DNA of 64,000 nucleotides from Parcubacteria group bacterium (GTDB lineage: Bacteria; Patescibacteriota; Minisyncoccia; UBA6257; JACRHW01), in the NCBI GenBank assembly GCA_016217555.1, contig JACRHW010000006.1:18153-82152 (forward strand), written 5' to 3'. This document shows, one piece after another, positions 14,956-63,973 of the stretch; the first letter of the stretch is position 1, and each line of letters begins with the position of its first letter. The notes under the pieces are model-generated. The model ran no database searches. It was not told the origin of the DNA and was given only the letters and a program-made list of their open reading frames with translations. The position numbers and the translations under genes were made by a program.

Positions 14956-15062
14956 GATAACCATACCAATATACGAATGATACTAATACTACAAATCAAT
15001 ACGAATATCGTACGTATTCGTAACCATTCGTATCATTTGTATGGATTCGTATATTAGTATTT
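14956..15062. repeat. 107-bp imperfectly palindromic element (TACGAAT/ATTCGTA-rich, centred on CGTACG), copy 1; exact reverse complement of 34528-34634
   Basis: Base-by-base comparison of both copies. Confidence 0.85.
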
Positions 15063-16736: not shown

Positions 16737-16837
16737 ACAAACACCTTCTTTGCGGTTTATGTGTTATGTACTATCGACACCATACCATAGTATTACGGTG
16801 TCTTGTCAATCATTGCAGGCGCTGTTTTGAAACACAA

Positions 16838-16905
16838 TATTCCCTGAGCGAAGTCGAAGGGTTTCCTTAGAGAAAGGTAGGCCTTCGACAAGCTCAGGCA
16901 CTAGC
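16838..16905. repeat. hairpin repeat CCTGAGCGAAGTCGAAGGG..GCCTTCGACARGCTCAGG, full copy (second full copy 49325-49392; half copies near 44635 and 53283)
   Basis: Seen directly; stem conserved, loop differs between copies. Confidence 0.6.
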
Positions 16906-16970: not shown

Positions 16971-17618
16971 ATGTTTTGTATGGATAAAGAGGATTTGAGG
17001 GGGCGAAAAAAGAGGGCCGCAAAGATATTCGGGACGCTTAAGAAGTTATTTCCAGATGCAGGGATGATGCTCAAATATTCCAATAACTGGGAGCTTCTTG
17101 TTGCGGTGATGCTCTCGGCACAATGCACTGATAAACAAGTAAATAAGGTAACCGAGGCGTTGTTTAAGAAATACAAAACTCTTGAGGATTATCTGGGGGC
17201 TAGTCTAAAACAGTTTGAGAAGGACATTTATTCTACGGGTTTTTATCGCAGTAAAGCAAAACATATTCTTGCGGCAGCGAAGATGGTGAAGGAAAAATTT
17301 AGCGGTAAGATTCCCCGGACGATGGAAGAAATAATGTCCTTACCTGGAGTGGCACGAAAGACAGCAAATGTGGTGTTGGGGAATGCATATGGTATAGTTC
17401 TTGGTATTGCTGTCGATACACACGTAAAACGTCTTGTGGGGGTACTTGGGTTGAGCAACCATACAGATCCAAATAAAATAGAACAGGATCTCATGGAAAT
17501 TATTCCTAAAAAAGATTGGTTTGTTATTGCTTATCGATTGATAGAATATGGGAGAAATTATTGTCCAGCAAAGCGCCACAAGCACGAATTATGTCCTCTT
17601 ACAAAAATAAAAGTTTAG
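16971..17618 (+). CDS. nth: endonuclease III (DNA glycosylase/AP lyase)
   Basis: LLVAVMLSAQCTDKQVNKVT HhH region; C-terminal Cys cluster NYCPAKRHKHELCPL. Confidence 0.85.
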   Translation: MFCMDKEDLRGRKKRAAKIFGTLKKLFPDAGMMLKYSNNWELLVAVMLSAQCTDKQVNKVTEALFKKYKTLEDYLGASLKQFEKDIYSTGFYRSKAKHILAAAKMVKEKFSGKIPRTMEEIMSLPGVARKTANVVLGNAYGIVLGIAVDTHVKRLVGVLGLSNHTDPNKIEQDLMEIIPKKDWFVIAYRLIEYGRNYCPAKRHKHELCPLTKIKV

Positions 17619-17643
17619 ATACAGAATGTTAAAGTTGTAAGGT

Positions 17644-17812
17644 ACGTGGTATTTTGAATTATGAGACATGAATTCCTCACACGCGAGAATGCCCAGCGGC
17701 ATTCTCGCTCTCTCCACAAGCGCTTCATTGTCAACCCAACTCATTACCATTCGGGGTTGACAACACCCTGCTACGCGCTTGCGGAAGGGTTCGAAATTCA
17801 TGTCTCATAATT
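17644..17812 (+). mobile_element. MITE-like structured repeat, family 1, copy 1 (TIR TTGARTTATGARAYAT; core GCGCTTCATTGTCAACCCAACTCATTACCATTCGGGGTTGACAACACCCTGC)
   Basis: Perfect terminal IR GAATTATGAGACATGAATTC; two internal hairpins; homologous copies at 19898-20057 (inverted) and 23049-23190. Confidence 0.7.
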
Positions 17813-17863
17813 CAAAATGGCCAAGGTATACGAGCTATAAGATACTAAAATATAATAATACAC

Positions 17864-18715
17864 ATGGAACCATTTAAAGATTTTAAAAATAGATTTAAGT
17901 TGCTAGTAAGTAAACATCGACATTTAGTTGTAAATACTTTATCCAATATATTTACAATGAGATTAATTGGAAATAAAACCCATGGAGATTTAGCTGAAAT
18001 AGGTATAGCCGAATTTATTAATCAGTTTATGTATGATTTTAAAAGTATACATGTTGGGAAAGACCTTTTTCGGGCAAAAGAACGTGAGGAGGATATTGTA
18101 ATTATTAACGAGGTTACGAAATCACAATTCCCAGTTGGTTTAAAAGCCTATGGAGATGGTCCATTACAACTCTCAACCGACAGTGATTAGAAGATGTTCC
18201 CTTATCTTGAACAACAAGGTAAGGATATCACGGATAAGAAGAGGATAACTAAAATTTTTGCATCACAGGCGTTTTCTGAATTTAACAATATCAATGTCAT
18301 GCCTCTTATTTATAATGAGAAAAAGAAGCAGTGTAATATAATGATTTTTGACCATGAAAAAGCTATTAAACAGACGGCACGAATTCTTTATATAGGATTA
18401 GGAAAAAGTCATGGGGGCAAAAAGACTGGTAAATCTAGAATGCATCCAATCTTTATGTTTTTAGATAACAAGAGCAATTATATTTGTGAAGTTCGTTATG
18501 GTGGGGCATCAGCAAATGCTCTTCAGAGGGGACTTTGGACGCATACAAGAAATGCTATTTCTTTTTTTGATAGCCTTACAAATGGCTGGATTGATTATTC
18601 ACATAATCACACTTTGGTAAAATTATTTGGTCTAGCATTAAATAGTACGGAAAAAAGCCATAAAGAAGTTAATATACTTTTACAAAAGGATATTGATAAA
18701 TTGAAACAAACTTAG
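17864..18715 (+). pseudogene. putative type II restriction endonuclease interrupted by a single in-frame TAG (18188-18190); the two ORFs 17864-18190 and 18194-18715 are in the same frame
   Basis: Frame arithmetic on the sequence; combined 283 aa; PD-(D/E)xK-like EDIVIINEVTK; adjacent Dam-like MTase. Confidence 0.5.
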
Positions 18716-18716
18716 T

Positions 18717-19883
18717 ATGTCCAAGAACTTATTTAATGAGAAAGATTTTTCTGGGATAAAAACTCAAGGCATTAAATATGCTGGTTCCAAACTCAAAATA
18801 ATCCCTTACATTTTGGAGAGTATCAAAGATTTAGAAATCAAAACAGTATTGGATGGGTTTAGTGGTTCTACTAGAGTAAGTCAAGCTTTTGCTCAAGCTG
18901 GTTATGATGTTACCTCAAACGACATTGCTCATTGGTCTGAAGTATGTGCAAAATGTTTCTTGTTGTATGATAAAGACAAAAAATATTACCAAAACATAAT
19001 TGATGAACTCAATACTCTTGATGGTTATAATGGTTGGTTTACAACTTACTATGGAGGAGGTGAGGTGATGGACGTAAAAATGCCCTTTCAAATTAAAAAC
19101 ACAAGGAGGCTGGACGCAATAAGAGATCGCATTGAGGAATTGAAATTAAATGACATTGATAAATCTGTCATCTTAACAAGTTTACTTTTTGCACTGGATG
19201 CAGTAGATAGTACGCTAGGCCACTTTGTGTCGTATCTTTCTAAATGGTCTAAACGTTCCTATAATGATTTATATTTAAAACTCCCTGATTTGAAAGAAAC
19301 AATTGGTAATCACAACGTCTTAAGAGAAGATATTTTTAAAGTGGTAGAAAATGACTATTTCGATCTTGCGTATTTTGACCCCCCCTATGGCTCTAATAAT
19401 GAAAAAATGCCCCCAAGTAGAGTCAGATATTCATCCTATTACCATATATGGACGTCAGTGGTTAAACACGATAAGCCGGTTCTTTTTGGTAAGGTAAATA
19501 GAAGAGAAGATAGTAAAGATCTTGTTTCAGCTTCTGTGTTTGAGGAGTTCAGAAAAAACAATAATGGAAATTTCATTGCCATGGAAGCAATAAGAATGCT
19601 TATTCAAAATACTAAAGCAAGATACGTATTACTTTCTTATAGTTCCGGAGGAAGAGCGACAAAAAAAGAACTTGAAACAATTCTCAATGAAACAGGAAAA
19701 GTTCTAAAAATTATTGAAATTGATTACAAGAAAAATATTATGGCAAGTATGCGTTGGACAAACGAGTGGTTAAACTCAAATGATGCACATAAGGAATACC
19801 TTTTTTTGATGGAAAAGACTCAAAAAAATTATAAAACTCCCCCAAAAAATCCTTATGCAACAATTCAATCGCACTTTTCATAA
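18717..19883 (+). CDS. N6-adenine DNA methyltransferase, Dam-like (D12 class)
   Basis: Motif I LDGFSGS and motif IV FDPPYGS in alpha-group order. Confidence 0.8.
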   Translation: MSKNLFNEKDFSGIKTQGIKYAGSKLKIIPYILESIKDLEIKTVLDGFSGSTRVSQAFAQAGYDVTSNDIAHWSEVCAKCFLLYDKDKKYYQNIIDELNTLDGYNGWFTTYYGGGEVMDVKMPFQIKNTRRLDAIRDRIEELKLNDIDKSVILTSLLFALDAVDSTLGHFVSYLSKWSKRSYNDLYLKLPDLKETIGNHNVLREDIFKVVENDYFDLAYFDPPYGSNNEKMPPSRVRYSSYYHIWTSVVKHDKPVLFGKVNRREDSKDLVSASVFEEFRKNNNGNFIAMEAIRMLIQNTKARYVLLSYSSGGRATKKELETILNETGKVLKIIEIDYKKNIMASMRWTNEWLNSNDAHKEYLFLMEKTQKNYKTPPKNPYATIQSHFS

Positions 19884-19897
19884 TATGAGCTAAAAGT

Positions 19898-20057
19898 TGA
19901 GTTATGAAATATAAATTTCGAACCATTCTGCAGGTGCGGAGCAGGGTGTTGTCAATCCTTCGCTTTGTGCGAATTGGATTGACAATGAAGCGCTTTCGGA
20001 GAGAGTGAAAATACCGTTGGGTATTTTCACGTGTGAGGAATATATATTTCATAATTC
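19898..20057 (-). mobile_element. MITE-like structured repeat, family 1, copy 2 (inverted orientation)
   Basis: Reverse complement matches copy 1 core with compensatory substitutions in both hairpins. Confidence 0.7.
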
Positions 20058-20079
20058 AACCATACAACAAACACTTATT

Positions 20080-20304
20080 ATGAAAATAGTCGTTACTGCA
20101 AAACCAAATGCCTCAAAGGATAAGGTGGACAAAATCGATGAGACGCTTTATGTTGTTTCTACGCGGGCATATCCTCGTGATGGCAAGGCGAATAAGGCGA
20201 TTATTGAACTTCTTGCAGAATATTTTCATGTGGCAAAATCATGTATTACTATTACATCAGGACACACTTCACACCGAAAGGTGATTGAGGTGATAGGGTT
20301 ATGA
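20080..20304 (+). CDS. DUF167/YggU-family protein
   Basis: MKIVVTAKPNASKDKV..AYPRDGKANKAIIELLAEYF..ITSGHTSHRKVIEV; the ORF-track start at 20005 lies in the repeat. Confidence 0.55.
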   Translation: MKIVVTAKPNASKDKVDKIDETLYVVSTRAYPRDGKANKAIIELLAEYFHVAKSCITITSGHTSHRKVIEVIGL

Positions 20305-21542
20305 AAAAACAATTTCGATCGTTTGCTCCTGTTTTTGTTACCGTTTTTTTGGATGTATTTGGGTTTGGGCTTGTTATTCCTATTCTCGCCCCTTTATTTT
20401 TTGATCCAACGGGAGTTGTTCATGCCACCTATTCGCATACGTCACGAAGCTTGATGTTTGGGCTTATGCTTGCGCTTTATCCTTTTGCGCAGCTTTTTGG
20501 TGCACCATTTTTGGGTGCTCTTTCTGACAAAATAGGAAGAAAAAAAGTGATTCTTCTTTCTCTCCTGGGGTCGTTTTTTGGATATATTCTTTTCGGGTTT
20601 GGTATTGTCGTACATCGAGTATCACTGCTATTCGTAAGCCGTATCTTAAGCGGTTTTATGGGGGGGAATATTGCGGTGGCGTGGTCTTCTCTTGCCGATG
20701 CGAGTAGTAGTGAAGAGGAAAGGGTAAAGAATTTTAGTCTTATGGGGGTTGCCTATGCACTAGGGCTTATCATAGGACCCCTTGCGGGTGGGAAGCTTGC
20801 GGATGTAGAGATTAGCACCTGGTTTACTTTGGCGATGCCTTTTTGGGTTGCTGCTACACTGAGTTTTTTAAATATAATATTTGTGGCACAGGCGTTTCAG
20901 GAAACACTACGGCGTTTTGTTTCAAAAAAAGTTGACTGGCTTACTGGATTTCGTAATGTAGCACGGGCGTACCATCTTCCTCGTTTGCGTGTTCTTTTTG
21001 TTGTTATTTTTTTACTTTTTTTTGGGCTTAATATTTTTATGCAATTTCTTCAGGTATTTCTTGTTGAGAAGTTTCACTTTTCAGAATCACAAATAGGAGA
21101 TTTGTTTGGGTATACAGGACTTTGGATTGTCGTTGCTCAGGCGGGTCTTACCCGACTTCTGGCGATGCGCATGCGAGCGGAAACGGTTTTGAAGTATGCA
21201 ACATTTTTTTTGGGTGTTTCTTTTCTCGCCCTTCTTCTTCCCGAACGATCGTGGATTCTTTTCATTGTCTCTCCCTTTATTGCAATTTTTTTTGGGGTGA
21301 TGCAGCCCAATGCAACATCTCTCCTTTCTGATTTAGGGGGTAGGGAGGCACAAGGTGAGGTGTTTGGTATCGCACAATCGATACAGTCCTTGGCACAGAT
21401 GATCCCTGCCCTTTTGGGTGGAATTTCACTTTCATTTCATGTAGCTATTCCTATTATTCTCGCTGCGTGTGCGAGTTTTGCAGCATGGGGGGTATTTATT
21501 CTATTTTTTAAAGAGGAAGGTACTGGTCGTCCTAGAAGCTAA
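20301..21542 (+). CDS. MFS transporter (drug:H+ antiporter-like)
   Basis: 12-TM architecture; motif A GALSDKIGRKKV. Confidence 0.8.
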   Translation: MKKQFRSFAPVFVTVFLDVFGFGLVIPILAPLFFDPTGVVHATYSHTSRSLMFGLMLALYPFAQLFGAPFLGALSDKIGRKKVILLSLLGSFFGYILFGFGIVVHRVSLLFVSRILSGFMGGNIAVAWSSLADASSSEEERVKNFSLMGVAYALGLIIGPLAGGKLADVEISTWFTLAMPFWVAATLSFLNIIFVAQAFQETLRRFVSKKVDWLTGFRNVARAYHLPRLRVLFVVIFLLFFGLNIFMQFLQVFLVEKFHFSESQIGDLFGYTGLWIVVAQAGLTRLLAMRMRAETVLKYATFFLGVSFLALLLPERSWILFIVSPFIAIFFGVMQPNATSLLSDLGGREAQGEVFGIAQSIQSLAQMIPALLGGISLSFHVAIPIILAACASFAAWGVFILFFKEEGTGRPRS

Positions 21543-21566
21543 TTCCTAAAAGCTATAAGCTCATAC

Positions 21567-21890
21567 ATGATTTCATATGATGATTTTAAAAAAGTAGAGT
21601 TGCGAGTTGCGAAGATTGTCTCTGCCGAGCGCGTAGAGGGTTCAGAGAAGTTATTAAAATTGCAGGTAACCCTCGGGGATGAAGTAGAGAGGCAAATTCT
21701 TGCCGGAATAGGAAGACGATATGAACTTGAAAAACTGATAGGAAAAGAAATTATTATTGTTGCAAATCTCGAGCCGCGTAGTCTTATGGGGTTTGAAAGT
21801 CATGGGATGCTTTTGGCCGCTGAAGGCGAAGACGGTCCGGTGTTACTTACCGTAGATCAAGAGGTGAAACCGGGAAGCGGAATTAAGTAA
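21567..21890 (+). CDS. tRNA-binding domain protein (CsaA/Myf-like)
   Basis: VELRVAKIVSAERVEGSEKLLKLQV..GMLLA OB-fold tRNA-binding signature. Confidence 0.7.
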   Translation: MISYDDFKKVELRVAKIVSAERVEGSEKLLKLQVTLGDEVERQILAGIGRRYELEKLIGKEIIIVANLEPRSLMGFESHGMLLAAEGEDGPVLLTVDQEVKPGSGIK

Positions 21891-22041
21891 CAAAGAAGAT
21901 GGAAAAAATTGCGAAAAATGTGAAAACGGTATATAACGTGGATGAGGTATTAGTTTGTTAGCTATTAGGGATTAGGACGTTTTGATGTTCTAATACACTA
22001 GCCCCTAAAAACTAAAACCTAACATACTAACGTACTGCGCC

Positions 22042-23049
22042 ATGATTACACGTATTGGTATTGATTTGGGGACGGCAAACACACTCGTGTTTGTTCCGAA
22101 GAAGGGCATTATTATCAATGAGCCTTCTATTGTGGCGATCAATTTGAAGACTCGTGCGGTCCTTGCGGTGGGTAAGGAGGCAAAGGATATGTTAGGAAGG
22201 ACACCCGATGATATAGGTGCCTATAAGCCGCTCAAGGATGGAGTGATCGCTGACTATTATATTACGAGATCAATGTTGAAATATTTTATTAACAAGGCAA
22301 CGGGGTTTACCTTGTTTAAACCCGAAGTTGTTATCTCTGTTCCTGCGGGTATTACTTCGACGGAAAGAAGGGCGGTAATTAATGCTGCTGAGGAGGCTGG
22401 TGCGAAAACGGTGTATGTTGTGAAGGAGCCGATTCTCGCGGCACTGGGGGCTGGAATTCCTATCAACTCTCCATCGGGTAATATGGTTGTAAACATCGGT
22501 GGAGGAACAACTGAAGTTGCGGTTATTTCTTTGGGGGGTATTGTGGCATCATCTTCTCTTCGCATTGCGGGAAATAAATTTGATCAGGCAATTGCGGATT
22601 ACGTAAAGAAAAAATATCTTCTTGCGATTGGCGAACAGATGGCAGAAAGGATTAAGATAGAGGTAGGTTCGGCGATGCCAGTAAAAACAAAATTAGAAAT
22701 GGAGATACGAGGGAGGGATTTAGTAAATGGTTTTCCTCAGGTAGTTACCATCCATTCTAATGAGGTTGCCTCAGCAATATCTGATTTGCTTCTCGAGATG
22801 GTGCACACCATCAAAGAAGTGTTTAATGATACACCGCCAGAACTTGCTGCTGACGTTATGGATAAGGGGATTATCGTAAGTGGGGGAGGTGCACTCCTTA
22901 GAAATATTGATGAGTATATCAAGCGCATGACGGGTGTTTCTGCTTTTTGTGTTGAGAACAGTCTTTATTCTGTGGCAAATGGGGCAGGTATCGTTATTAA
23001 TCATCTCGATACCTATCGTAGAGCGCTCGTCACAAAACGATTCAAATAA
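22042..23049 (+). CDS. mreB: rod-shape determining actin homolog MreB (paralog 1)
   Basis: IGIDLGTANTLVFV..NEPSIVAI; actin-fold phosphate and adenosine motifs. Confidence 0.85.
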   Translation: MITRIGIDLGTANTLVFVPKKGIIINEPSIVAINLKTRAVLAVGKEAKDMLGRTPDDIGAYKPLKDGVIADYYITRSMLKYFINKATGFTLFKPEVVISVPAGITSTERRAVINAAEEAGAKTVYVVKEPILAALGAGIPINSPSGNMVVNIGGGTTEVAVISLGGIVASSSLRIAGNKFDQAIADYVKKKYLLAIGEQMAERIKIEVGSAMPVKTKLEMEIRGRDLVNGFPQVVTIHSNEVASAISDLLLEMVHTIKEVFNDTPPELAADVMDKGIIVSGGGALLRNIDEYIKRMTGVSAFCVENSLYSVANGAGIVINHLDTYRRALVTKRFK

Positions 23050-23190
23050 AATTTGAGTTATGAAACATCTCTTTCTCACTCTCCCCGCAAACGCTTCGTT
23101 GTCAACCCAACTCATTGTGATTCGGAGTTGACAACACCCTGTTTCGCGTTTGCAGAATGGTTCGTAATAGATGTTTTATAGCTCAAGGAT
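23049..23190 (+). mobile_element. MITE-like structured repeat, family 1, copy 3 (5' hairpin deleted)
   Basis: TIRs GAGTTATGAAACATC / GATGTTTTATAGCTC; core CGCTTCGTTGTCAACCCAACTCATTGTGATTCGGAGTTGACAACACCCTG. Confidence 0.6.
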
Positions 23191-23204
23191 ATTAAGTATT
23201 ATTT

Positions 23205-23984
23205 ATGAATTCTTTATTTATCGGTAATACATACGCGCGAAATGCGATTACTGAGTATTTTAAGCCTTCCGGAGTACGGAGCTGTGTTTTGTATGGGTTG
23301 AAGGGGCTTGGGAAGTTTACTTTTTTACGTGAGCTTGTGCGCGTGCATGGAAATCAGTGTATCGTTTTAGATACTAGTCTTACCATTCAAATGATGCGGG
23401 AGATAAAACATTTTGCTTCTTTAAGTCAACGGGGGCAGGTGGTGTGTATCCTCGATAATGTGGACACCATGAACGAAGAGGCGCAATCAGCTTTTTTGAA
23501 GACTCTTGAAGAAGCGCCTCATATGGTTTTCTGTATTATTACAAGCAATCTTGATGCACTATTACCTACCATACAATCGAGAATCCCTGCTTTTTATTTT
23601 TCTCCTTGTACTAGTGGGGAGATGAAAGCATTTATTGATGGGCTTGGATCCCATGCAGAGGAAGAGAGAACATTAATAATAAAATACAGTGCGGGGAGAC
23701 CTGGAATTGCTAATGGGTTGGTGGCAAATATAAAAAAACTATGGGAGTTAGATCGTAGTATTTCTTTTCTCTCAGACCCTAACATATATAAACGGCTCCA
23801 TTTTTTTCATGAGTATGGTATACCGCTTTTTGGGGAAAATCCGGAACAATTTATTGATGCGTGTATTTTTTCTTTTGCTCAAAACGATACACAACGAATC
23901 AAAGATGTACTAGAGCTTAAACGAATACTTGATTCAAATGTAAATCCAATATTTCAATTTGAACACTATCTCGCAACACACTAA
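23205..23984 (+). CDS. holB: DNA polymerase III delta' subunit-like clamp-loader protein
   Basis: GLKGLGKFTF P-loop-like, FLKTLEEAP (cf. LKTLEEPP), TIQSRI (SRC motif). Confidence 0.6.
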   Translation: MNSLFIGNTYARNAITEYFKPSGVRSCVLYGLKGLGKFTFLRELVRVHGNQCIVLDTSLTIQMMREIKHFASLSQRGQVVCILDNVDTMNEEAQSAFLKTLEEAPHMVFCIITSNLDALLPTIQSRIPAFYFSPCTSGEMKAFIDGLGSHAEEERTLIIKYSAGRPGIANGLVANIKKLWELDRSISFLSDPNIYKRLHFFHEYGIPLFGENPEQFIDACIFSFAQNDTQRIKDVLELKRILDSNVNPIFQFEHYLATH

Positions 23985-27397: not shown

Positions 27398-27531
27398 AAA
27401 ACCTACTTCTTTGGCGAACTGCTTCGTTGCACACTGCGATACTCCTTCGCTGTATCATCTGAAATACAGCTCAGTCTGTTTCTCATGTGCGCCTCGCATT
27501 TCATCCAAATAAGTAGGTTTTTGATTTACTT
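27398..27531 (+). repeat. structured repeat family 2, copy A (core CGAACTGCTTCGTTG..GCTGTATCATCTGAAATACAGCTCAGTCTGTTTCTC..GCATTTCAT)
   Basis: Homolog at 41251-41373; closing 16-bp helix differs completely in sequence between copies. Confidence 0.65.
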
Positions 27532-27730
27532 CTTTTCGCGCTTTATCCAAATATATACGTCTTGTCGAATCCAGATTAGACCGGTTTTTTCTTGCCTGAA
27601 CATAAAAAATGAGTATAATCAAGGGACATGAATCCTGTTAGAAGTCGCGCTTGCTACTGCATAATGAGATAAAAAGGGTAATGAATAATTATTAATTTTA
27701 ATATAAATAAGTTGGTTTGCGATTTTTTGA

Positions 27731-32519: not shown

Positions 32520-32563
32520 GACTACCGTCTAAAAGCTAACAGCTATAAGCTAATACCTAATGT

Positions 32564-33136
32564 ATGGATCGTCTCGTTGTTGATATCGAAACAAAAAACA
32601 CCTTTCAGGATGTGGGAGGGGAACATAATATTCATAAACTCAACGCTTCATTGGTAGGTGTGTATTCGTATAAAAAAGATATGTATTTTGGACTTGAAGA
32701 ACACGAGTTTGGTCGGCTTGATGAGCTATTTCGAGGGGCAGAACTTATCATCGGATTTGCAACTAACCGGTTTGATATACCAATACTTCGGAAGTATACA
32801 AAAGTAGACATTAAAAGAATTAAGTCGCTTGATATGTTTGAGGAGGTACAGAAAAAGTTAGGGCGTCGTGTGGGGCTTGGGGTGCTCTGTGAAGCAAACT
32901 TAAAGATTGGAAAAACAGGGCATGGGCTTGACGCGATTGAATATTATAAAAATGGAGAAATCGAGAAGCTCAAAAAATATTGCCTAAATGATGTAAAAAT
33001 TACAAAAGAGTTATATGAATTCGTATTAGATAAAAAGAAACTTTTTGTGCCTGATAAGTATAATCCCCCCGGTGTTTTTTTTGATTTCGACTGGGCCTGG
33101 TCGCTACAGACGAGTTCTCAAGGTATGTTATTTTAG
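32564..33136 (+). CDS. RNase H-like fold 3'-5' exonuclease (YprB/PolB-exo-like)
   Basis: VVDIETK..IGFATNRFDIPIL acidic motifs. Confidence 0.45.
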   Translation: MDRLVVDIETKNTFQDVGGEHNIHKLNASLVGVYSYKKDMYFGLEEHEFGRLDELFRGAELIIGFATNRFDIPILRKYTKVDIKRIKSLDMFEEVQKKLGRRVGLGVLCEANLKIGKTGHGLDAIEYYKNGEIEKLKKYCLNDVKITKELYEFVLDKKKLFVPDKYNPPGVFFDFDWAWSLQTSSQGMLF

Positions 33137-33701: not shown

Positions 33702-33976
33702 TGAATGGTGCAAGGTGTACCACATAGGTTTCTAGTATTTCACGGATGGTATGATACAGCATACCACTGTAATAAATTAGCATTCTCCGATAGTTCCGAA
33801 TACAATATGATATGTGTACATAGAGGAATGGTACAAAAATTTGAATAATGGGAAGAGAACATATACAATGAAAATAATAAATTAACGAGCTTATGGCTTT
33901 TAGCTAATAGCTTCTAGGATAAAAAAATATAGGATGGGATCCTAAAAGCTAACAGCTAGAAGCTAAAACCTGAGTT

Positions 33977-34516
33977 ATGGATTATATAAAACAATTTGAA
34001 GTATGGCTTAAGAAATCGCTTGAAGAATTTACACACGAAGTGCGGTCTATTAAGGCTGGTCAGGCCTCGCCCGCACTTGTCGAGGACGTGAGGGTGTCGT
34101 GTTATGATGGGCAGGTAATGCAGCTTAAACAAATTGCTGCTATTTCTGTGTCTTCTTCGCGAGAACTTCTTGTACAGCCCTGGGATAAGACTCTTATTAC
34201 TAACATTACTAAAGCACTTGCTGATCTCCCGGGAGGTATTCAGGCGACACCCAACAAGAATGTAGTTCGTCTTACCCTTCCTATGCTTACCGAAGATCGT
34301 AGAAAAGAATTTATTAAACTTGTGCACAATAGTGTTGAGACAACACGCATACGAATGAGAAAAGAGCGGGATGAGATTAATAAAAAAATTGATACTATTG
34401 CGGCTGAGGATGAGCGGTTTCGTACGAAAGAACGTATTGATGAGGTAATGAAAAGTGCTCAGAAAGATATTGATGAGGTTGCGGCACAAAAGGAAAAGGA
34501 ACTTCTTTCATTTTAG
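33977..34516 (+). CDS. frr: ribosome recycling factor
   Basis: Full-length RRF similarity (VRSIKAGQASPALVEDVRV..LTEDRRKEFIKLV). Confidence 0.9.
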   Translation: MDYIKQFEVWLKKSLEEFTHEVRSIKAGQASPALVEDVRVSCYDGQVMQLKQIAAISVSSSRELLVQPWDKTLITNITKALADLPGGIQATPNKNVVRLTLPMLTEDRRKEFIKLVHNSVETTRIRMRKERDEINKKIDTIAAEDERFRTKERIDEVMKSAQKDIDEVAAQKEKELLSF

Positions 34517-34527
34517 TATGTAATTTG

Positions 34528-34634
34528 AAATACTAATATACGAATCCATACAAATGATACGAATGGTTACGAATACGTACGATATTCGTATTGATTTGTA
34601 GTATTAGTATCATTCGTATATTGGTATGGTTATC
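34528..34634. repeat. 107-bp palindromic element, copy 2 (inverted relative to 14956-15062)
   Basis: Exact reverse-complement match. Confidence 0.85.
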
Positions 34635-39375: not shown

Positions 39376-41251
39376 CTCGGATAACTATAGAGAGGACTTT
39401 GACGTGGAGAATATTTTTCTTGTAAGTGACAAGGACTTTATCGACGATCGCGTTGAGATTCCTTTTACGCAACATACGACTAGTTCAGCCCTCGTCATTG
39501 CGCTGCTTACCCTCGGTTTGTTTATTGCACAGACTACATATCTCAATGTTGTGAAGGGGGGCACATTTGAAGAAATATCGCTTGGAAATTCAGAAAATGT
39601 TGAGTATGTTGACGCTCCGAGGGGTATTATTAAAGATCGGTTCGGGGAAGAAATCGTAGGTAATAAGACAGGATTTGATCTTGTTATTTATGGAAGTAAG
39701 CTTCCTAAGACCAATGATGAATTTAATGGAGTTGTGAATAAAATTTCTGAACTTACAGGAATGACTAAGGATGTGGTGCGTATATTCATGAAAAATGCGC
39801 AAGAAAAACAAATTAGAGAAGCAGTGCTGATTCACAATATGGATACACAAAAGGCACTTGTATTTCAATCAATTACTTTGCCCGGTGTACGTGCGCGCGA
39901 ACGATATATGAGGGATTATCTGTATCCAGAGGCTCTTGCTTCTGTGACGGGATATGTGGGGCTTGTAAATGAGGCCGATCTTAAAAAAGGAAAAGATATA
40001 CAAAACGATGACTATGTGGGAAGAGCTGGGATAGAGCAGTATTATGAAATGATGTTGCGTGGCGAACGAGGAAAACGAATCATAAAACGTGATGGGCAAG
40101 CGGGTGAGGGGGTTACTATCCTTCCTCCAAAACAAGGGAATGATGTCACGCTTACGATCGATGGGGGGTTACAGAGATACATGTATGAACGACTGCAAGA
40201 GGCACGGCGTACTCTACACACCGATGGTGCTGTTGGTGTGGTACTTGATGTGCGCAACGGAGAAATCCGTAGTCTTGTAAGTCTTCCTGGATACGATCCT
40301 TCGTGGTTTCTCGATTCTGCACACGAGGCTCAGATTAATGAAGCATTCCAGAGTAGACTTCACCCGCTTTTTAATCGCGCGATTTCTGGAACGTATTCCC
40401 CTGGTTCTACTATAAAACCAATGATGGCATTTGCTGCGTTGCGGGAGGGGGTTATCACGCCAACTACTATTGTTGCGGGTCATGAAGGGGTGCTCGTAGT
40501 ACAGAATCCTTATCATGCTGATCAGCCTTCTCTTTTCCGTGATTGGAAGATTCATGGCGACCTAGATGTACGTAATGCGATTGCAGAATCGGGAAACATT
40601 TTTTTCTATACTGTTGGAGGAGGAGCCTATGGTATTAAGGGGCTTGGTGCTACAAAAATAAAACATTATTGGGAATTGTTTCGTTTGGGTGAGAAGACTG
40701 GAGTTGATTTGCCTCAAGAGGTATCGGGTTTTCTCCCTTCTCCAGAATGGAAGGAAAAAACGTCTAAAACAGCATGGAGAGTGGGAGATACCTATAATAT
40801 AAGTATAGGTCAAGGCGATCTTCTCTTGACGCCGATACAAATCATGCGTTATATTTCTGCTATCGCGAACAAGGGGTTTGCGGTACAACCCCATATCGTA
40901 AAGAATTCGACACGAGAAACCCTAATTCCTTTGGAGACGCTACAGGATTCAGAGACACAATGGTTTGATGTGGTACATGGTGGGATGAAAGCTGCTGTTT
41001 CATCTCCACATGGCACCGCTCACCTCCTTTCTGAAATTCCTGTTTCTATTGCGGCAAAGACGGGGAGTGCTCAAATTAATTGGAATACAAAAACTAATGC
41101 ATTGTTTGTAGGATTTGCTCCCGCAGATAAATCAGAGATCGCAATTCTTATCCTTATTGAAAATGCCCAGTCTGCTTTATTAAATGCAGTACCAGTAGCT
41201 AAGGATGTATTAGCTTGGTATAATACTAATCGTGGTTTCCAAAAAGAATAG
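39365..41251 (+). CDS. mrdA: penicillin-binding protein 2 (transpeptidase)
   Basis: SxxK motif GSTIKP; PBP dimerisation and transpeptidase regions. Confidence 0.8.
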   Translation: MRNNSDNYREDFDVENIFLVSDKDFIDDRVEIPFTQHTTSSALVIALLTLGLFIAQTTYLNVVKGGTFEEISLGNSENVEYVDAPRGIIKDRFGEEIVGNKTGFDLVIYGSKLPKTNDEFNGVVNKISELTGMTKDVVRIFMKNAQEKQIREAVLIHNMDTQKALVFQSITLPGVRARERYMRDYLYPEALASVTGYVGLVNEADLKKGKDIQNDDYVGRAGIEQYYEMMLRGERGKRIIKRDGQAGEGVTILPPKQGNDVTLTIDGGLQRYMYERLQEARRTLHTDGAVGVVLDVRNGEIRSLVSLPGYDPSWFLDSAHEAQINEAFQSRLHPLFNRAISGTYSPGSTIKPMMAFAALREGVITPTTIVAGHEGVLVVQNPYHADQPSLFRDWKIHGDLDVRNAIAESGNIFFYTVGGGAYGIKGLGATKIKHYWELFRLGEKTGVDLPQEVSGFLPSPEWKEKTSKTAWRVGDTYNISIGQGDLLLTPIQIMRYISAIANKGFAVQPHIVKNSTRETLIPLETLQDSETQWFDVVHGGMKAAVSSPHGTAHLLSEIPVSIAAKTGSAQINWNTKTNALFVGFAPADKSEIAILILIENAQSALLNAVPVAKDVLAWYNTNRGFQKE

Positions 41252-41373
41252 AATCCATGCATTTAGCGAACTGCTTCGTTGTAGGCTCCGATACTTCTTC
41301 GCTGTATCATCTGTAATACAGCTCAGTCTGTTTCTCGCCTACGCCTCACATTTCATCTAAATGCATGGATTCT
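41251..41373 (+). repeat. structured repeat family 2, copy B
   Basis: Closing helix GAATCCATGCATTTAG / CTAAATGCATGGATTC around the conserved core. Confidence 0.65.
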
Positions 41374-44612: not shown

Positions 44613-44812
44613 GAGCCCTATTTGATATATTATTTCCTGAGCGAAGTCGAAGGGCTTTCTGGTGGTATGATGTATCATACCAGCCAGGAATTTAGGTTTT
44701 TAACTGATATTTATTTCTACCATAAAGTTCAAATTATGTACATAATTGACGCATTTTGTTGATTATGCTACAAATTTATTGTATCTAGTACCTTGAAAAG
44801 GAGAACAAGAAA

Positions 44813-47248: not shown

Positions 47249-48394
47249 ATGACAGTATATTTTATTATGTCTTCAAGACTTGGGTTAAGGACGTGGATTG
47301 AGATAAACAAAAAAAATCTTTTTCACAATATCGATCAATTCAAATCTCTTTTAAAGAAAGAGACGAAGTTTGGTGCGGTCATAAAATCAAATGCTTATGG
47401 GCACGGGCTTTATACTATTGCGAATCTTGTTAAGGACAAGGTAGATTGGTTTTTTGTAGATACGTTTATAGAAGGATTACATTTACGTGAAGCTGGCATA
47501 AAAAATCCAATTCTCGTGCTCGGGTATACGCTCCCCATTCATTTTGAGGCGGCCGCTCTTAATAATGTTAGCCTTACTATTTCTCAATTTGAAGGACTGA
47601 AGCACGTGGTTCGTATGAAGAATTTCCCAAAAATTCACCTTAAGTTTGATACGGGGATGCATCGGCAGGGATTTTACAAAGAACAGCTGTCGAGTATTAC
47701 ATCGTGTATTGCTCGAGTGCCTTCGTGTATTGAGGGGGTATATACTCACCTAGCTTCTGCTAAGGATTTCAATTACCCTCATTATACAGACAAGCAATTA
47801 CGTATTTTTGGGCAAATAACCAAAGAATTTAGTAAGGAAAAATATCCGGGTATTCTTTATCATGCAGCCGCATCTGGTGGTGTAATTGTTTCTCCAGAAA
47901 GTCATTTTGATCTTGTGCGTGTCGGTATGGGGCTTTATGGGTATTATCCCTCTGCGGAAATAAAAGATCAGATGATGACACTCGCACCTAAAAAAATAAC
48001 GCTCAGACCAATACTTTCATGGAAGACATTAGTTTCTGAGGTGAAAAGCGTCGAGGCGGGGGAACCCATAGGATATGACCTCACAGAATATCTTCCCCAA
48101 AAAACAAATATTGCCATTCTGCCTATCGGATATTGGCACGGGTATGACCGTGGGCTTTCTTCGGTAGGTGAGGTGCTTGTTGGTGGAAGGAGATGTCGTC
48201 TGTTGGGAAGAGTATCTATGGATATGATTACGGTAGGAGTCGGAAGGGCTCGTGTGGGAGATGAGGTTGTGTTGTTAGGGTCATCGGGGAAAGAAATAAT
48301 CTTGGCAGATGAGATGGCGCGAAAAATAGGAACAACTCCTTACGAAGTTCTTACAAGAATTAATCCACTGATTGAGCGAATTGTAGTACAATAA
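47249..48394 (+). CDS. alr: alanine racemase
   Basis: PLP-lysine motif AVIKSNAYGHG. Confidence 0.85.
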   Translation: MTVYFIMSSRLGLRTWIEINKKNLFHNIDQFKSLLKKETKFGAVIKSNAYGHGLYTIANLVKDKVDWFFVDTFIEGLHLREAGIKNPILVLGYTLPIHFEAAALNNVSLTISQFEGLKHVVRMKNFPKIHLKFDTGMHRQGFYKEQLSSITSCIARVPSCIEGVYTHLASAKDFNYPHYTDKQLRIFGQITKEFSKEKYPGILYHAAASGGVIVSPESHFDLVRVGMGLYGYYPSAEIKDQMMTLAPKKITLRPILSWKTLVSEVKSVEAGEPIGYDLTEYLPQKTNIAILPIGYWHGYDRGLSSVGEVLVGGRRCRLLGRVSMDMITVGVGRARVGDEVVLLGSSGKEIILADEMARKIGTTPYEVLTRINPLIERIVVQ

Positions 48395-48483
48395 AGGAGC
48401 TTATAGTTTTTAACTGTTAGCTTCTAGGGGTGCACGAGCTATGGATCTCTAAAAGCTAGGAGCTATAAGCTAATACCTAATGT

Positions 48484-49308
48484 ATGAAAGCCTATGTTCC
48501 GCAACATATTCGTACACAAGATACGAGGCGCAAACGTCTGCGTTTTTCTTTTTTTCTAATTTTGGGAATGTTCCTTTTGAGTGGGGTAATCTATGGCGTG
48601 TTTTTTAATCCAAAACTTCTTGTGGCCAATATCACTATTTCAGGTTTTGATCAATCTCTTGCTACACAATTTCAAGATGCAATGAGGACTAAAAAAATCT
48701 TAAAAGGATTCGTTCCTTCAAATAATCTTCTTTTTATAGATAAAGGTGATTTTATTTCTGTTGGAGACCAATATCCAGAGATTAAAAATGTTGTTATGCA
48801 AAAGGATTATAGAAATGCTCGTCTTGATTTTAGTGTTACCACGCGCAAACCAGAGGGGTTGTGGTGTGGGGAGAGGGAGGGGTGTTATGTATTTGATACT
48901 GATGGGGTAATTTATATAAAACAAGAGATGAATGTTGCCTCGAGTTCTTTTTCGCTTGTTATTGAAGATTCAAATCGATTTCCTACACTTCTTTCTCCTG
49001 TTCAAAACGAGAATATATCAACAAAAAAAATACGAGACGGCATAATAACACCTGAGTTGATTTCGGTGTTTAAGGGTCTATTGAATATATTTAAAGAAAA
49101 TGGAGTTTCTATAAAAACTATTATTAGGAGGACGGAAGCAGATAATATCGTACTTTTGGAGACCAATGATGAGCACATTTTCTTAATTGATGGAGGGCGT
49201 AGTGCTGAAGACAGTATGCGCGACTTTTTACTTGCAAAAAATAAGATTGATTTTCAGAAGATAACGTATGTAGACCTAAGAATTCCAGGACGCGTGTATT
49301 ACAAATAA
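48484..49308 (+). CDS. FtsQ/DivIB-like cell division protein (POTRA)
   Basis: N-terminal TM plus POTRA-like region; genomic context. Confidence 0.45.
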   Translation: MKAYVPQHIRTQDTRRKRLRFSFFLILGMFLLSGVIYGVFFNPKLLVANITISGFDQSLATQFQDAMRTKKILKGFVPSNNLLFIDKGDFISVGDQYPEIKNVVMQKDYRNARLDFSVTTRKPEGLWCGEREGCYVFDTDGVIYIKQEMNVASSSFSLVIEDSNRFPTLLSPVQNENISTKKIRDGIITPELISVFKGLLNIFKENGVSIKTIIRRTEADNIVLLETNDEHIFLIDGGRSAEDSMRDFLLAKNKIDFQKITYVDLRIPGRVYYK

Positions 49309-49324
49309 TGCTGTTTAGAGAGAC

Positions 49325-49392
49325 AATATTCCCTGAGCGAAGTCGAAGGGTTTCCTTTTGAAAAAGTGGGCCTTCGACAGGCTCAGGCAATA
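49325..49392. repeat. hairpin repeat CCTGAGCGAAGTCGAAGGG..GCCTTCGACAGGCTCAGG, second full copy
   Basis: Matches 16838-16905 with a different loop. Confidence 0.6.
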
Positions 49393-49467
49393 GTAACAAC
49401 TTGATTTCACTTTTTTAGGTTGTTGATCTATACTATATACATAGATTACCGTTTTTAAAAAACCACT

Positions 49468-53262: not shown

Positions 53263-53369
53263 TATGTCTCTTCTTTTTAATAGTCCCTGAGCGAAGTCGA
53301 AGGGCTTTCTATGCGATTGCAGGGCAGATTGATAGTGTGGTACAGTGTTTAAGGTAATTTGTGATAAAT

Positions 53370-59819: not shown

Positions 59820-61009
59820 ATTCTACCACAACTATTTAAAAATAGCCAGAAAAGCCATTTTCGTATTTTTGTCGACTTCACAAGAGATTTTAATACCCGA
59901 GGTGTAACTATCAAGATCGACCCTTCAATGATTACATCCACTTGACATACTTGTTTATTTGAATACAATAAGAGAACAAACAATGATAAATAGTAGAGAA
60001 CAATTTCACGGCTTTTGAGGGATGGGTTTTTTATATACCCTTCTGTATGCCGCTGTTCTCCTAGAAGCGGTATTTTTTTAGCTCGTTAGCTCGTTAGCTC
60101 GTTAGGAAATCCTAAGAAGCTCATAAGCTAGGAAGCTAATCGGAAGATGATGGTGAGGACTGATGTTTGAAAAGTGAACGTAATTTCGTAGATCGCATTT
60201 TCCCATCGATCGGCCTCACAATATTTTATTATGAGGAGAATCGAAGGGTATATTTTAAAGATCAAACGATTTCCCCAAGTCCTTGCATGTAGTCGTAAAA
60301 GACGATGGCAAGGCTATTGTATGAAATACACCCTTCCAGGTGTCATGCAATAAATCCCGTTAGAGACAGAGGCATTGCGAGTCTTCGTGGTCTCTAACGG
60401 GATAAATATCTATCTGGTTGGATACGGGTAATAATAAGGGCACACGGTGGATGCCTAGACACTAAAAGGCGATGAAGGACGTAGCGTAGCTGCGATAAGT
60501 CTCGGGGAGGTGCGTAGCAACCTTTGATCCGGGAATTTCCGAATGGGGCAACCCAACACAGCAAACCTGTGTTACATGACTACTTGATAGCATGTGCAAA
60601 CCCGCTGAAGTGAAACATCTCAGTAAGCGGAGGACAAGAAAAAATTTTTTATTTCCTTAGTAGCGGCGAGCGAAAAGGAAACAGCCTAAACTTATCGATT
60701 TGAAGCAATTTAAATTGGTAAGGGTTGTAGGGGAAAACACTTTTTAACTTTTTAGTTTTTAGTCTTCTGGTCTTTACTGATCAGAGGCTAAAAGCTAAAA
60801 GCTAAAATAAAGAGTTACAAAATAATTTTTTAGCTGAATCTGTCTGGAAAGCAGAGCCAAAGAGGGTGATGGCCCCGTAAGCGAAAAGAAATTATCTCTT
60901 GTTTTTTAATCTTCTGAGCAATTGGAAGGTATCCCTAAGTACACCGACAAACGCAAGCGTTGGTGGAAGCATCCCACACTACAGGGAAAGGCTAAATACT
61001 TTTAGTGAT

Positions 61010-61046
<37 letters not shown>

Positions 61047-61176
61047 TAGGCCGGAAGGTCGGTGAAATAGAACCTGAAACCGTGTGCTTACAAGGAATCG
61101 GAGCTCGCCGCAAGGTGAGTGACGGTGTGCCTATTGAAGAATGAGTCAGCGAGTTATTTTGCATTGCTCGTTTAAC

Positions 61177-61237
61177 CCCGCCCTCTGTGCGTGTAGTTCT
61201 TTTTTCAAAGAAAGGAAACGTGCTTAGAGGGCGGGGG
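61177..61237 (+). other. IVS-like hairpin insertion in 23S with stem CCCCGCCCTCT / AGAGGGCGGGG
   Basis: Absent from E. coli alignment; same stem sequence as the insertion at 61819-61917. Confidence 0.5.
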
Positions 61238-61818
61238 GAGGCAGAGCGAAAGCGAGTCTTAATAGGGCGTAGCATTATCAGCTCTTTAGCTCTTTAGTCT
61301 AATAGTTTAATAGAATTTCTAATGAGCTAGCGGATTAATCGGCTAATGAGCTTATATTGCAGGCAGTGCGAAACAGACCCGAAGCCGGGTGAGCTTGCCG
61401 TGGCCAGGATGAACTTCGACGAAAGTCGAAGAGAGGTCCGAACCGGTTGGTTGTGCAAAACCTTCGGATGAGTCGCGGCAAGGAGTGAAAAGCTAATCGA
61501 ACTCGGTAATAGCTGGTTCTCTCCGAAATAGTTCTAGGACTAGCCTTGGGACAACTACGTGTGGGGGGTAGAGCACTGGATGATTGGTAAAGGGCTTCGG
61601 CTCGGCCGATCAATCAAACTCCGAATACCCATACGACTATCCCGGGAGTTAGACTGTGGGGGCTAAGCTCCATGGTCAAAAGGGCATGAACCCTGATCTT
61701 CATCTAAGGTCCCTAAATTTAGACTAAGTGTAAAGGAAGTGATAAGCCGAAGACAGATGGAAGGTTGGCTTAGAGGTAGCCATCCTTTAAAGAGTGTGTA
61801 ACAACTCACCATCATATC

Positions 61819-61917
61819 CCGCCCTCTAAGCTCTTTGATTTTTGTTTAATTTATATGACGAAGATTAAAGCAGATTAAGAGGATAATGCCCTAAATCGAA
61901 GGGCATAGAGGGCGGGA
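61819..61917 (+). other. IVS-like hairpin insertion in 23S with stem CCCGCCCTCT / AGAGGGCGGG
   Basis: Absent from E. coli alignment; nested GCCCTAAATCGAAGGGC hairpin. Confidence 0.5.
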
Positions 61918-62742
61918 TTGGCTCATTGCGCCCAAGATTTATCGGGACTAAGTCTAATACCGAAGATAAGAATTTCAATGTTTTATTACATTGATCTGGT
62001 AGGAGAGCATTTCAAGTGCTGCGAAGGTTGATTCGTGAGGACGACTGGAGCGCTTGGAAGAGAGAATGCTGATATGAGTAACCACAAGCACGATGAGAAT
62101 TCGTGCCCCCGTAAATCCAAGGTTTCCGTGGCAATGGAAGTCAGCCACGGGTTAGGCGACCCTAAGGCAATGGTGAAAACCGCAGCCGATGGACAGCCGG
62201 TTAATATTCCGGCCCTCTACTATAACGTTCGATGGAGTGACGGAGGAAATAAGTGGGAAGGGATCAATGGTTATTCCCTCATTGGAGTCAAGAGCTGTGC
62301 ACTAGGCAAATCCGGTGCACTACCTTTCATGGTGAAGTTCGGACTTTGAAGATAGCTTGGATTATATCTAAGCAATTCCCGTGAAGAGCCTTCCGAGAAA
62401 ACCTTCTAAGAGTTAAGGTATAGTGGATTCGTACTGTAAACCGACACAGGTGGATGAGGCGAGTAGCCTCAGGGGAACGGGTGATTTCTCGTTAAGGAAC
62501 TCGGCAAAAAAGCGACCGTAACTTCGGGATAAGGTCTGCCCCGCGCAAGTGGGGCCGCAGCGAAAGTTTCCCTAGCGACTGTTTACCAAAAACACAGCTC
62601 CCTGCTAACTCGTAAGAGGATGTATAGGGGGTGACGCCTGACCAATGCGAGAAGGTTAACGGTGCAGGTGTGTGCAGCAATGTACATGCTTAGTGCCCGA
62701 AGCCCTCGTCAATGTCGGCGATAACTATAATCGTCCAAAGGT

Positions 62743-63012
62743 GAATTGCATTGCCTTTGTAAAATCTAGCTATATGCTGGAAACTCTGAAGTATCCGGTA
62801 CTACTTGAAAAAGTAAAAATGTATCCGGTGCAGACAACCAGCAGGAAAGATTTCATGGTTTTTATGCTATGAAAAATCCTCAGAGACTACACGCTAGATC
62901 CGCTAGTTTGCGGAAAGACATAGTCCGAACTCTATGGCGACATAGAGAGATAGGCAGAAATGTTCTATCCAGAATCATGGAGATTTGTTTCCAGATTCTA
63001 GTAACATAATTG
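62743..63012 (+). other. probable group I intron at 23S position 1931 (E. coli numbering)
   Basis: Removal restores ..CCAAAGGU|AGCGCAACUCCUUGUCGGG (cf. CCUAAGGU|AGCGAAAUUCCUUGUCGGG); 5' exon ends in U paired to IGS GCCUUUG (7-bp P1 with U-G); intron ends in G. Confidence 0.6.
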
Positions 63013-63506
63013 AGCGCAACTCCTTGTCGGGTAAATTCCGACGTGCATGAATGGCGTAACGACTGGGGAACTGTCTCAACGAGAAGCCCGGTGAAAATGC
63101 GACACCAGCGAAGACGCTGGTACCCTATAGCGGGACGAAAAGACCCCGGGAGCTTTACTGTAGCTTGATATTGGGTTTACGTCTTAACTACGTAGCGTAG
63201 TGAGGAGAGGTTGAAGGTTCGATTTCGGTTGGACTGGACTCGTCAATGAAACACTCATTTTTTAAGATGTATATTCTAACCTTTACGGAAAAACCGTGAG
63301 GGGACAGTGTCTGGTGGGCAGTTTTCGTGGGGCGCGATCCTCCCAAAGAGTAACGGAGGAGTTTATCAAGGTCAGCTTAGCTTGGATGGAAATCAAGCTG
63401 GACGTGTAAAGGCACAAGCTGGCTTAACGGCAAGGCATACAAGCCGCGCCGATGCGAAAGCAGAACTTAGTGACCCGATGGTCCTTTGTAGAAAGGCCTG
63501 AGACAT

Positions 63507-63542
<36 letters not shown>

Positions 63543-63673
63543 GGTCCGAGAGTCCCTATCGACGACCAGGTTCGGCACCTCGATGTCGGCTCATCTTATC
63601 CTGGGACTGAAGAAGGCCCCAAGGGTTTGGCTGTTCGCCAATTAAAAAGATACGCGAGCTGGGTTCAAACCGT

Positions 63674-63973
63674 TAAGAGACTAATTTCATGTATTTGAGA
63701 TTGATTTTGGTTTTTTAACAGTTTGAACCCCGAGGACAAAGACATAATAACGGCGGCATCTAAACAGTAATGTTTGGTGAAAAGCTAACTAATATCGGTG
63801 AAATCCTTATACAATCAATGAGGACAATACCGAGGGAACGCTTCCAAAAGAAGTAGCCCGTAGAGACTTATACGTTAGCCATCCTTAATGTGAGGATGAA
63901 GATATAGTCCAATGCACATAGTAATATGTGGAAATCCTTCTTGGTTTAAAATATCCATAGAAGGACTAACATG
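63674..63973 (+). other. probable intron (group I-like) at 23S position 2593
   Basis: Removal restores GGGUUCAAACCGU|CGUGAGACAG (cf. GGGUUUAGAACGU|CGUGAGACAG); 5' exon ends in U, insert ends in G; internal GUUUGAACC complementary to exon GGUUCAAAC. Confidence 0.5.

Follow-up and report, generated by a model that had tools for sequence, protein, structure and literature searches.

We analysed a window of 64,000 nucleotides (nt) from the genome of a Parcubacteria group bacterium (contig JACRHW010000006.1, assembly GCA_016217555.1, positions 18,153 to 82,152 of the forward strand), in which three copies of a structured intergenic element, here called family 1, lie within 6 kb. Two of them stand in inverted orientation on either side of a restriction-modification (R-M) gene pair between nth and a DUF167 gene, and the third lies alone between mreB and holB. 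Family 1 is an undescribed family, in which the folded shape rather than the exact sequence has been kept by evolution. Taken from closing helix to closing helix, copy 1 spans 17651-17818 with the minus strand as the strand that folds better (covariance model score 181 bits, E=2.8e-41), copy 2 spans 19896-20060 with the plus strand favoured, being inverted relative to copies 1 and 3 (157 bits, E=1.4e-35), and copy 3 spans 23052-23187 on the minus strand (121 bits, E=6.7e-27). The arms of the closing helix, P1, form perfect inverted ends of 24 bp in copy 1 (17651-17674 and 17795-17818) and match at 91% over 22 bp in copy 2 (19896-19917 and 20039-20060). Hairpins P6 and P5 of copy 1 occupy 17683-17708 and 17728-17763; copy 3 is a deletion variant without hairpin P6, showing an alignment gap of about 29 nt where this first hairpin would be. 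Against shuffled versions of themselves, the three copies gave folding z-scores of -11.3, -8.9, and -5.9, respectively. The terminal motif TTGARTTATGARAYAT has seven matches in the window with 0.75 expected, and none of 100 shuffles reached seven. The initial annotation had placed all three copies within a few bases of these coordinates. Both compensatory hairpin pairs that it quoted are present in the sequence as written, and the core with two hairpins that it described holds for copies 1 and 2, while copy 3 lacks the first of them. Its view that open reading frames (ORFs) sharing the peptide SWVDNEA derive from the repeat was also borne out, the peptide being a translation of the conserved hairpin stem AGTTGGGTTGACAATGAAGC.

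On its better-folding strand, the element has a length of about 165-195 nt across the family and consists of a conserved three-way-junction core enclosed by P1, a helix of 20-25 bp with sharply bounded length. The core carries the short hairpin P6 and a long arm, P2-P3-P5, which displays a purine-rich bulge of nine invariant bases (AGCAGGGUG) and a stem of invariant sequence, UUGUCAA/UUGACAA. The tip of P5 varies in length, and its insertions are themselves paired. Among 30 copies, standard pairs were found in 96.3% of the pair cells, compared with 34-46% in slid controls, in which the pairing partners were shifted by one to three columns, and 34 of 56 pairs have changed on both sides. All helices covary, and none of 500 shuffles reached any of the observed measures of pairing or covariation; an alignment of 18 copies was analysed as well. 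The earlier proposal of a selected secondary structure instead of a decaying repeat is therefore upheld by the wider family. The proposed semi-conserved termini turned out to be the fast-drifting P1 helix, with consensus termini UUGAAUCA...UGAUUCAA: median identity between copies is only 0.49 in P1 (0.24-0.70) as against 0.84 in the core, and the core evolves about five times more slowly, while pairing in P1 is compensated, with 94% of its cells still paired. Ends that drift and yet stay paired are the opposite of the pattern expected for a terminal repeat bound by a transposase. The three copies of the window share 73-78% identity in P1 and form a clade of their own, which argues that P1 belongs to the copied unit.

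Family 1 has at least 30 members of distinct sequence, and about 27 of the 30 found lie outside the window, in genomes of the GTDB and in metagenomes. A scan of GTDB species genomes with the core pattern gave 16 true matches, nine on contigs of one metagenome-assembled genome (MAG) labelled Saccharibacteria, six on contigs of a Parcubacteria MAG, and one on a contig binned as Woesearchaeota; a search with the covariance model added second copies on two contigs. The family thus occurs in multiple copies per genome and ranges over a small clade of Parcubacteria-like genomes together with groundwater and other metagenome samples. The search that the initial annotation had suggested as a check brought further copies, with covariation far beyond the controls. 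Matches in high-GC genomes (loci L004, L005, L007, and L019) and 16 of 35 metagenome loci were rejected as chance matches to the pattern, and a weak model match at L006:3778-3929 is a different structured element. The contig binned as a Woesearchaeota archaeon (L020, JACRKM010000122.1) carries a family-1 element together with a bacterial-type topoisomerase I; the P1 of this element shares 95% identity with the P1 of L027, a copy from a JGI metagenome. L020 is probably a misassigned contig of the candidate phyla radiation (CPR) and not evidence of transfer between domains. No match to the element was found in Rfam 15, either for the whole window at the gathering threshold or for positions 17500-23400 at E≤10, by BLAST against phage and plasmid collections, or by a pattern scan of IMG/VR, and searches of a paper library on repeats, miniature inverted-repeat transposable elements (MITEs), and structured RNAs of CPR/Patescibacteria gave nothing relevant.

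The strand that folds is the reverse complement of the orientation used in the initial annotation. All 18 copies tested fold better in this orientation, with summed energies of -1431 versus -1190 kcal/mol. Counts of G·U against A·C pairs are 57:14 in P1, 9:2 in P6, and 12:2 in P2 and P3 together; in the outer part of P1, which evolves independently in each copy, they are 21:6. Unpaired positions of the fold-favoured strand are purine-rich. With respect to the orientation of neighbouring genes, the P1 counts are 15:4 for antisense and 6:2 for sense copies, so that the bias tracks the element, and its direction is opposite to that favoured by the local positive GC skew of the gene-sense strand. 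A mutation bias from replication or transcription was rejected on these two grounds as the source of the wobble asymmetry. As the G·U excess, of about 4:1, follows the element strand, one specific strand is selected to fold, either as RNA or as single-stranded DNA.

All copies are intergenic and lie among housekeeping genes, including nth, mreB, holB, mnmA, lepA, obg, ychF, tgt, topA, yebC, dnaX, tsaC, khpA, and others. In most of them, one particular end is found 0-7 nt past the stop codon of the gene that reads into the element, and the other side borders a longer spacer, often of about 150 nt; the distance to the next start codon is just 11-13 nt in some copies. Where the flanking genes are co-directional, the strand that folds better is antisense to them in 11 cases and sense in four. 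Promoter-like matches (22, with 18 expected) and terminator-like sites are at background level, and no promoter or terminator is conserved across the copies. An ORF encoding a GIY-YIG domain adjoins the element in L012 and was considered as a mobilising nuclease; it was rejected, as it occurs only once and the ORF in the corresponding position of L001 is unrelated.

Comparison with relatives revealed empty sites. The closest relative, with an MFS transporter 88% identical, shows a 4-nt overlap of nth and DUF167 and lacks the whole block of 2.46 kb that separates them in the window, so the empty site that had been proposed as a check does exist. In two relatives, with HolB proteins 71% and 68% identical, the mreB stop codon overlaps the holB start as TAATG; in the window, 155 nt (23050-23204; AA, copy 3, and 18 nt) have been inserted between the mreB stop and the holB start, with both ORFs intact. 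With these gene overlaps as empty sites, the three copies of the window are lineage-specific insertions. Insertion in this way separates essential genes that are coupled in translation and leaves the ORFs on both sides intact. Between close genomes there is turnover of sites: at the 3' end of lepA, one MAG carries family 1 and the other a different hairpin element, with flanking proteins 85-94% identical, and the window site orthologous to the family-1 site of L010 and L002 carries another repeat, family 2, instead. Between L003 (2558-2844) and L017 (3163-3452), an intergenic module of about 290 nt, made up of a family-1 element and an adjacent unrelated hairpin (ACCAAGATCGG...CGATCTTGGT), is inverted with flanking genes collinear. 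No direct target duplication of at least 4 nt was seen at the 30 copies or at the two filled-versus-empty footprints, a duplication of 1-3 nt being possible. Copies also persist. Orthologous family-1 copies kept between the two MAGs are 87-92% identical, with neighbouring proteins at 54-94%; for L001 and L008, the copies share 87% DNA identity, the adjacent proteins 54-57%, and the surrounding intergenic DNA cannot be aligned. We also considered that the core might insert into pre-existing host hairpins or produce inverted target duplications. This was rejected, since the empty sites are gene overlaps without a palindrome, and since the P1 arms have a degenerate consensus in common and are passed on at orthologous sites.

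The nth-DUF167 block (17619-20079, about 2.46 kb) consists of 32 nt, copy 1, 45 nt, the endonuclease gene R, the methyltransferase gene M, 12 nt, copy 2, and 19 nt. The two copies do bracket the R-M genes, as had been stated, but not exactly, with inner spacers of 45 and 12 nt and an additional 32 and 19 nt outside. The Type II restriction endonuclease gene (17864-18715, plus strand; PADLOC REase_II, PDLC03568) is interrupted by an in-frame TAG at 18188-18190, codon 109, and the two resulting ORFs cover positions 6-109 and 113-276 of the 281 positions of the PDLC03568 model. In intact homologues, codon 109 is CAA, encoding Gln, and the rest is 89% identical. The gene that follows (18717-19883, plus strand) encodes an intact D12-class N6-adenine DNA methyltransferase of Type II (PF02086, 1e-20; PDLC03342, 7.7e-137). 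The endonuclease was probably inactivated recently, with the methyltransferase left intact. Having adjacent REase_II and MTase_II genes, the pair is assigned to the Type II R-M systems by PADLOC.

The R-M part has a GC content of 30-35%, compared with 40-45% in its flanks. The methyltransferase is found at 80-88% identity across many Patescibacteria lineages, and the same R-M pair occurs with about 82% DNA identity in three other Patescibacteria contexts without the family-1 element, namely between bipA and CMAS, between ftsA and ftsZ, and in an integrase-bearing island. DNA homology of these contexts to the window extends from about 7 nt ahead of the start codon of R to a point within M. As the pair is found elsewhere without the element, and the core of copy 1 is nearer to that of copy 3 (identity 0.86) than to that of copy 2 (0.80), the cassette appears to move independently of the element. 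The earlier suggestion that the cassette arrived or moves as a unit with its flanking copies therefore survives only in part: the whole block is indeed absent from the relative, but the R-M genes occur at three housekeeping junctions elsewhere without the element, copy 3 was inserted alone between mreB and holB, and copies 1 and 2 do not have the closest cores. Probably, two mobile entities independent of each other met by coincidence at one permissive junction. The flanking copies may have been part of a larger donor fragment; an alternative no less likely is that they settled later, at the two permissive junctions newly created. A promoter-like site (TTCACG, 18 nt, CATAAT) at 20026-20055, within the outer arm of copy 2, is directed at DUF167. 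To judge by this motif, copy 2 might supply an outward-reading promoter to DUF167, which was uncoupled from nth by insertion of the block.

We favour the reading, and consider it somewhat probable, that family 1 is a non-autonomous mobile repeat with a lifestyle like that of REPINs, enterobacterial repetitive intergenic consensus (ERIC) elements, or Correia elements and an inverted design. The copied unit would be the whole hairpin, with P1 around the conserved core, and it would move via a single-stranded intermediate of the G-rich strand, for which we lean slightly towards RNA over single-stranded DNA. P1 would need only to pair, joining the two ends of the element, and the invariant core would be recognised by a trans-acting protein encoded elsewhere in the genome. 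Copies would be long-lived and vertically inherited, their helices drifting by compensatory change with the core fixed. Most resident copies may be co-transcribed with the upstream gene as part of its 3' untranslated region, and the processing or stability of the mRNA could be affected by a stem of at least 22 bp there. The R-M cassette would be a separately mobile unit that landed between nth and DUF167, with the flanking copies as lineage-specific paralogues and not its vehicle. Several points weigh against this reading. Neither an excision nor an insertion intermediate was observed, and within about 8 kb around each copy there was no transposase, REP-associated tyrosine transposase (RAYT), integrase, or reverse transcriptase beside any copy, which is in itself weak evidence; a scan of about 40 neighbouring ORFs in these regions likewise gave no Y1 transposase. 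For the fold-favoured strand, in most cases antisense to the genes beside it, we found no promoter of its own. Invariant purine-rich loops in a multi-helix junction are typical of functional RNA more than of a transposase substrate, and the conservation of the core and the retention of copies at orthologous sites are equally compatible with a function for the host.

Such a function would be that of a multi-copy family of structured non-coding RNA genes, for example protein-binding or catalytic, expressed from the G-rich strand, perhaps by divergent transcription from the promoter of the next gene, with P1 as a processing or closing stem. We regard this as possible, if rather doubtful. Strong covariation in every helix, a G·U bias intrinsic to the element strand, purine-rich unpaired positions, the paired insertions in the variable-length tip of P5, the slow evolution of the core relative to P1, the junction architecture, and orthologous copies that keep 87-92% identity beside proteins 54-94% identical are what one would expect of it. 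It is difficult to reconcile, however, with the absence of a conserved promoter or terminator, with some copies as close as 11-13 nt to the next start codon, with the occurrence of both orientations, including the intergenic module inverted between two genomes, and with new copies between translationally coupled essential genes. Sites that can be exchanged with unrelated hairpin families, the toleration of a copy without P6, and the narrow distribution also speak against it. The strand-specific fold and the lack of a visible target duplication would suit a folded single-stranded-DNA recombination site as well, of the integron attC or REP type, used by a tyrosine or HUH recombinase, with inverted copies delimiting the R-M cassette. 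The folded strand of family 1 is usually the complement of the sense strand of the upstream gene, as the attC bottom strand is the complement of the cassette sense strand; copies begin 0-9 nt after stop codons, and the two that bracket the R-M genes belong to a block that is missing as a whole in the relative. This is nevertheless unlikely, with no integrase or HUH gene on any element locus, copies scattered among housekeeping genes and not in an array, termini that misfit the attC R boxes (copy 2 alone fits, by chance), a core far more complex than the known hairpin substrates of recombinases, and an R-M cassette that moves elsewhere without these sites.

Still less probable, in our view, is a classical MITE mobilised by a DDE transposase, in which copies 1 and 2 would make up a composite transposon and have brought in the R-M genes as one unit. 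Ends resembling terminal inverted repeats of 22-24 bp, two inverted copies around a cargo of foreign GC content, and the absence of the whole block from the closest relative are in line with it. But neither the block nor the solitary copy shows a target duplication, the ends are 24-70% identical between copies and yet paired, unlike an end bound by a transposase, and an autonomous parent insertion sequence (IS) or its transposase was not seen. The R-M homology to other genomes also has its limits just before the R start codon and inside M, and the core of copy 1 is nearer to that of copy 3 than to that of its supposed partner. The MITE-like label of the initial annotation is supported only in part, and we do not regard the element as a classical MITE. 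That the window holds just three copies in 64 kb, all within 6 kb, might have suggested chance similarity or a decaying duplicated intergenic segment without structural selection. This is refuted by the 30 distinct copies in several genomes and metagenomes, the failure of all 500 shuffles to match their pairing or covariation, and the far lower pairing of the slid controls.

A more speculative proposal, which we put forward tentatively, is that family 1, perhaps together with family 2, which is of similar build, represents a new class of nucleic-acid element in the CPR. It would be either a self-spreading structured RNA, with its three-way junction, invariant purine bulge, and closing duplex of about 22 bp serving, for instance, self-processing or protein recruitment, or the substrate of an undescribed single-strand mobilisation enzyme that reads an internal core and not the ends. 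Genomes of the CPR (Patescibacteria) are very small and dense, and their non-coding RNAs and mobile DNA are poorly known. Family 1 reverses the usual design of bacterial repeats, having a conserved interior and ends that drift while remaining paired. Recognition of the core by an enzyme, if true, would imply a mechanism of mobilisation not known so far; a functional RNA would mean a new RNA class. The covariance model is a ready marker for genome dynamics in groundwater Parcubacteria.

The window displays further repeats. Family 2 has copies at 27398-27521 and 41251-41372, each about 125 nt long and folded as a rod-like hairpin. The interior is conserved, and the outer and inner stems are copy-specific and compensated. 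Family 2 folds better by 10-12 kcal/mol on the strand antisense to the flanking genes, and one of its copies is located exactly where relatives have a family-1 element. It was rejected as a distant member of family 1 and is a separate family, since a generic outer stem alone aligns (11 bits). A third intergenic family consists of simple hairpins about 60 nt long, CCCTGAGCGAAGTCGAAGGG...CCTTCGACAAGCTCAGG, with four copies at 16821-16904, 44624-44660, 49310-49393, and 53274-53310. Two identical AT-rich intergenic segments of about 107 nt, at 14956-15062 and, inverted, at 34528-34634, are rich in TACGAAT-like motifs; copies without any difference point to a mobile unit or a very recent duplication. 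Short intergenic repeats, CTAAAAGCTAACAGCTATAAGCTAA, occur in both orientations at 21531-21569, 32528-32566, 33880-33979, and 48390-48486; related AGCTATAAG strings adjoin family-1 copies.

Two features of a different kind were also noted. A conserved sigma-70-like promoter, TTGCCTGAACATAAAAAATGAGTATAAT, with a conserved leader (CAAGGGACATGAATCC...) after it, is found at 27590-27640 of the window as well as at about 3695-3745 of L010 and 55-105 of L002. In L010 and L002 it lies upstream of mnmA, and it showed no Rfam match at the gathering threshold; the region could be an unannotated leader or small RNA. The 23S rRNA gene (60424-63931) has two matches to group I introns, one at 62733-62947 and the other at 63736-63931, just past the end of the rRNA model match.

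Compared with known systems, family 1 resembles MITEs in being short, non-coding, multi-copy, and polymorphic for presence and absence, as the two empty sites indicate. It differs from them in lacking conserved terminal inverted repeats that match a parent IS, with no IS having these ends on any locus. The arrangement at nth-DUF167 recalls mobile insertion cassettes or MITE-bounded composites, in which passenger genes, here an R-M pair, lie between two inverted non-coding repeats, and the block is absent in a relative; there is no target duplication, however, the two flanking copies are not the most closely related pair, and the passenger moves elsewhere without the repeats.

Family 1 is comparable to integron attC sites, in which structure is conserved over sequence and a single folded strand, the complement of the cassette sense strand, is functional, and which lie directly after the stop codon and delimit mobile gene cassettes. 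In contrast, attC sites are simple hairpins with conserved R'' and R' boxes at their ends and a variable centre, and form tandem arrays beside intI, none of which applies to family 1. Only copy 2 (GTTGAGT...ATTCAAC) fits the R'' (RYYYAAC) and R' (GTTRRRY) boxes, and the other copies do not.

The ERIC elements, or intergenic repeat units (IRU), of Enterobacteria and the Correia elements (NEMIS) of Neisseria share several traits with family 1: they are imperfect palindromes of 100-170 bp in transcribed intergenic regions, occur in both orientations, and form long RNA hairpins. Stems of Correia elements are reported substrates of RNase III. Unlike family 1, these elements keep their terminal sequences, Correia elements duplicate a TA target, and both are rod-like and have no three-way junction. 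To our knowledge, no such strand-specific wobble bias has been described for either of them.

In the reading that we favour, family 1 resembles the REPINs of REP-RAYT systems in lifestyle. REPINs are short extragenic hairpin repeats that occur many times over, as a rule directly behind genes, with long persistence, largely vertical inheritance, and compensatory changes in the hairpin (PMC3116915), and family 1 shares these traits. The compensatory changes across the REPIN hairpin provide a precedent for such evolution in mobile repeats (PMC3116915). REPINs also have no classical signature of terminal repeats and target duplication, and a single-stranded intermediate is supposed for them (PMC3116915). 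Family 1 differs in that no RAYT was seen near its copies and no REP head motif of the GTAG type is present. In addition, REPINs have conserved REP 20-25-mers at their ends and a variable middle, whereas family 1 has variable ends and a conserved, multi-branched middle of about 120 nt.

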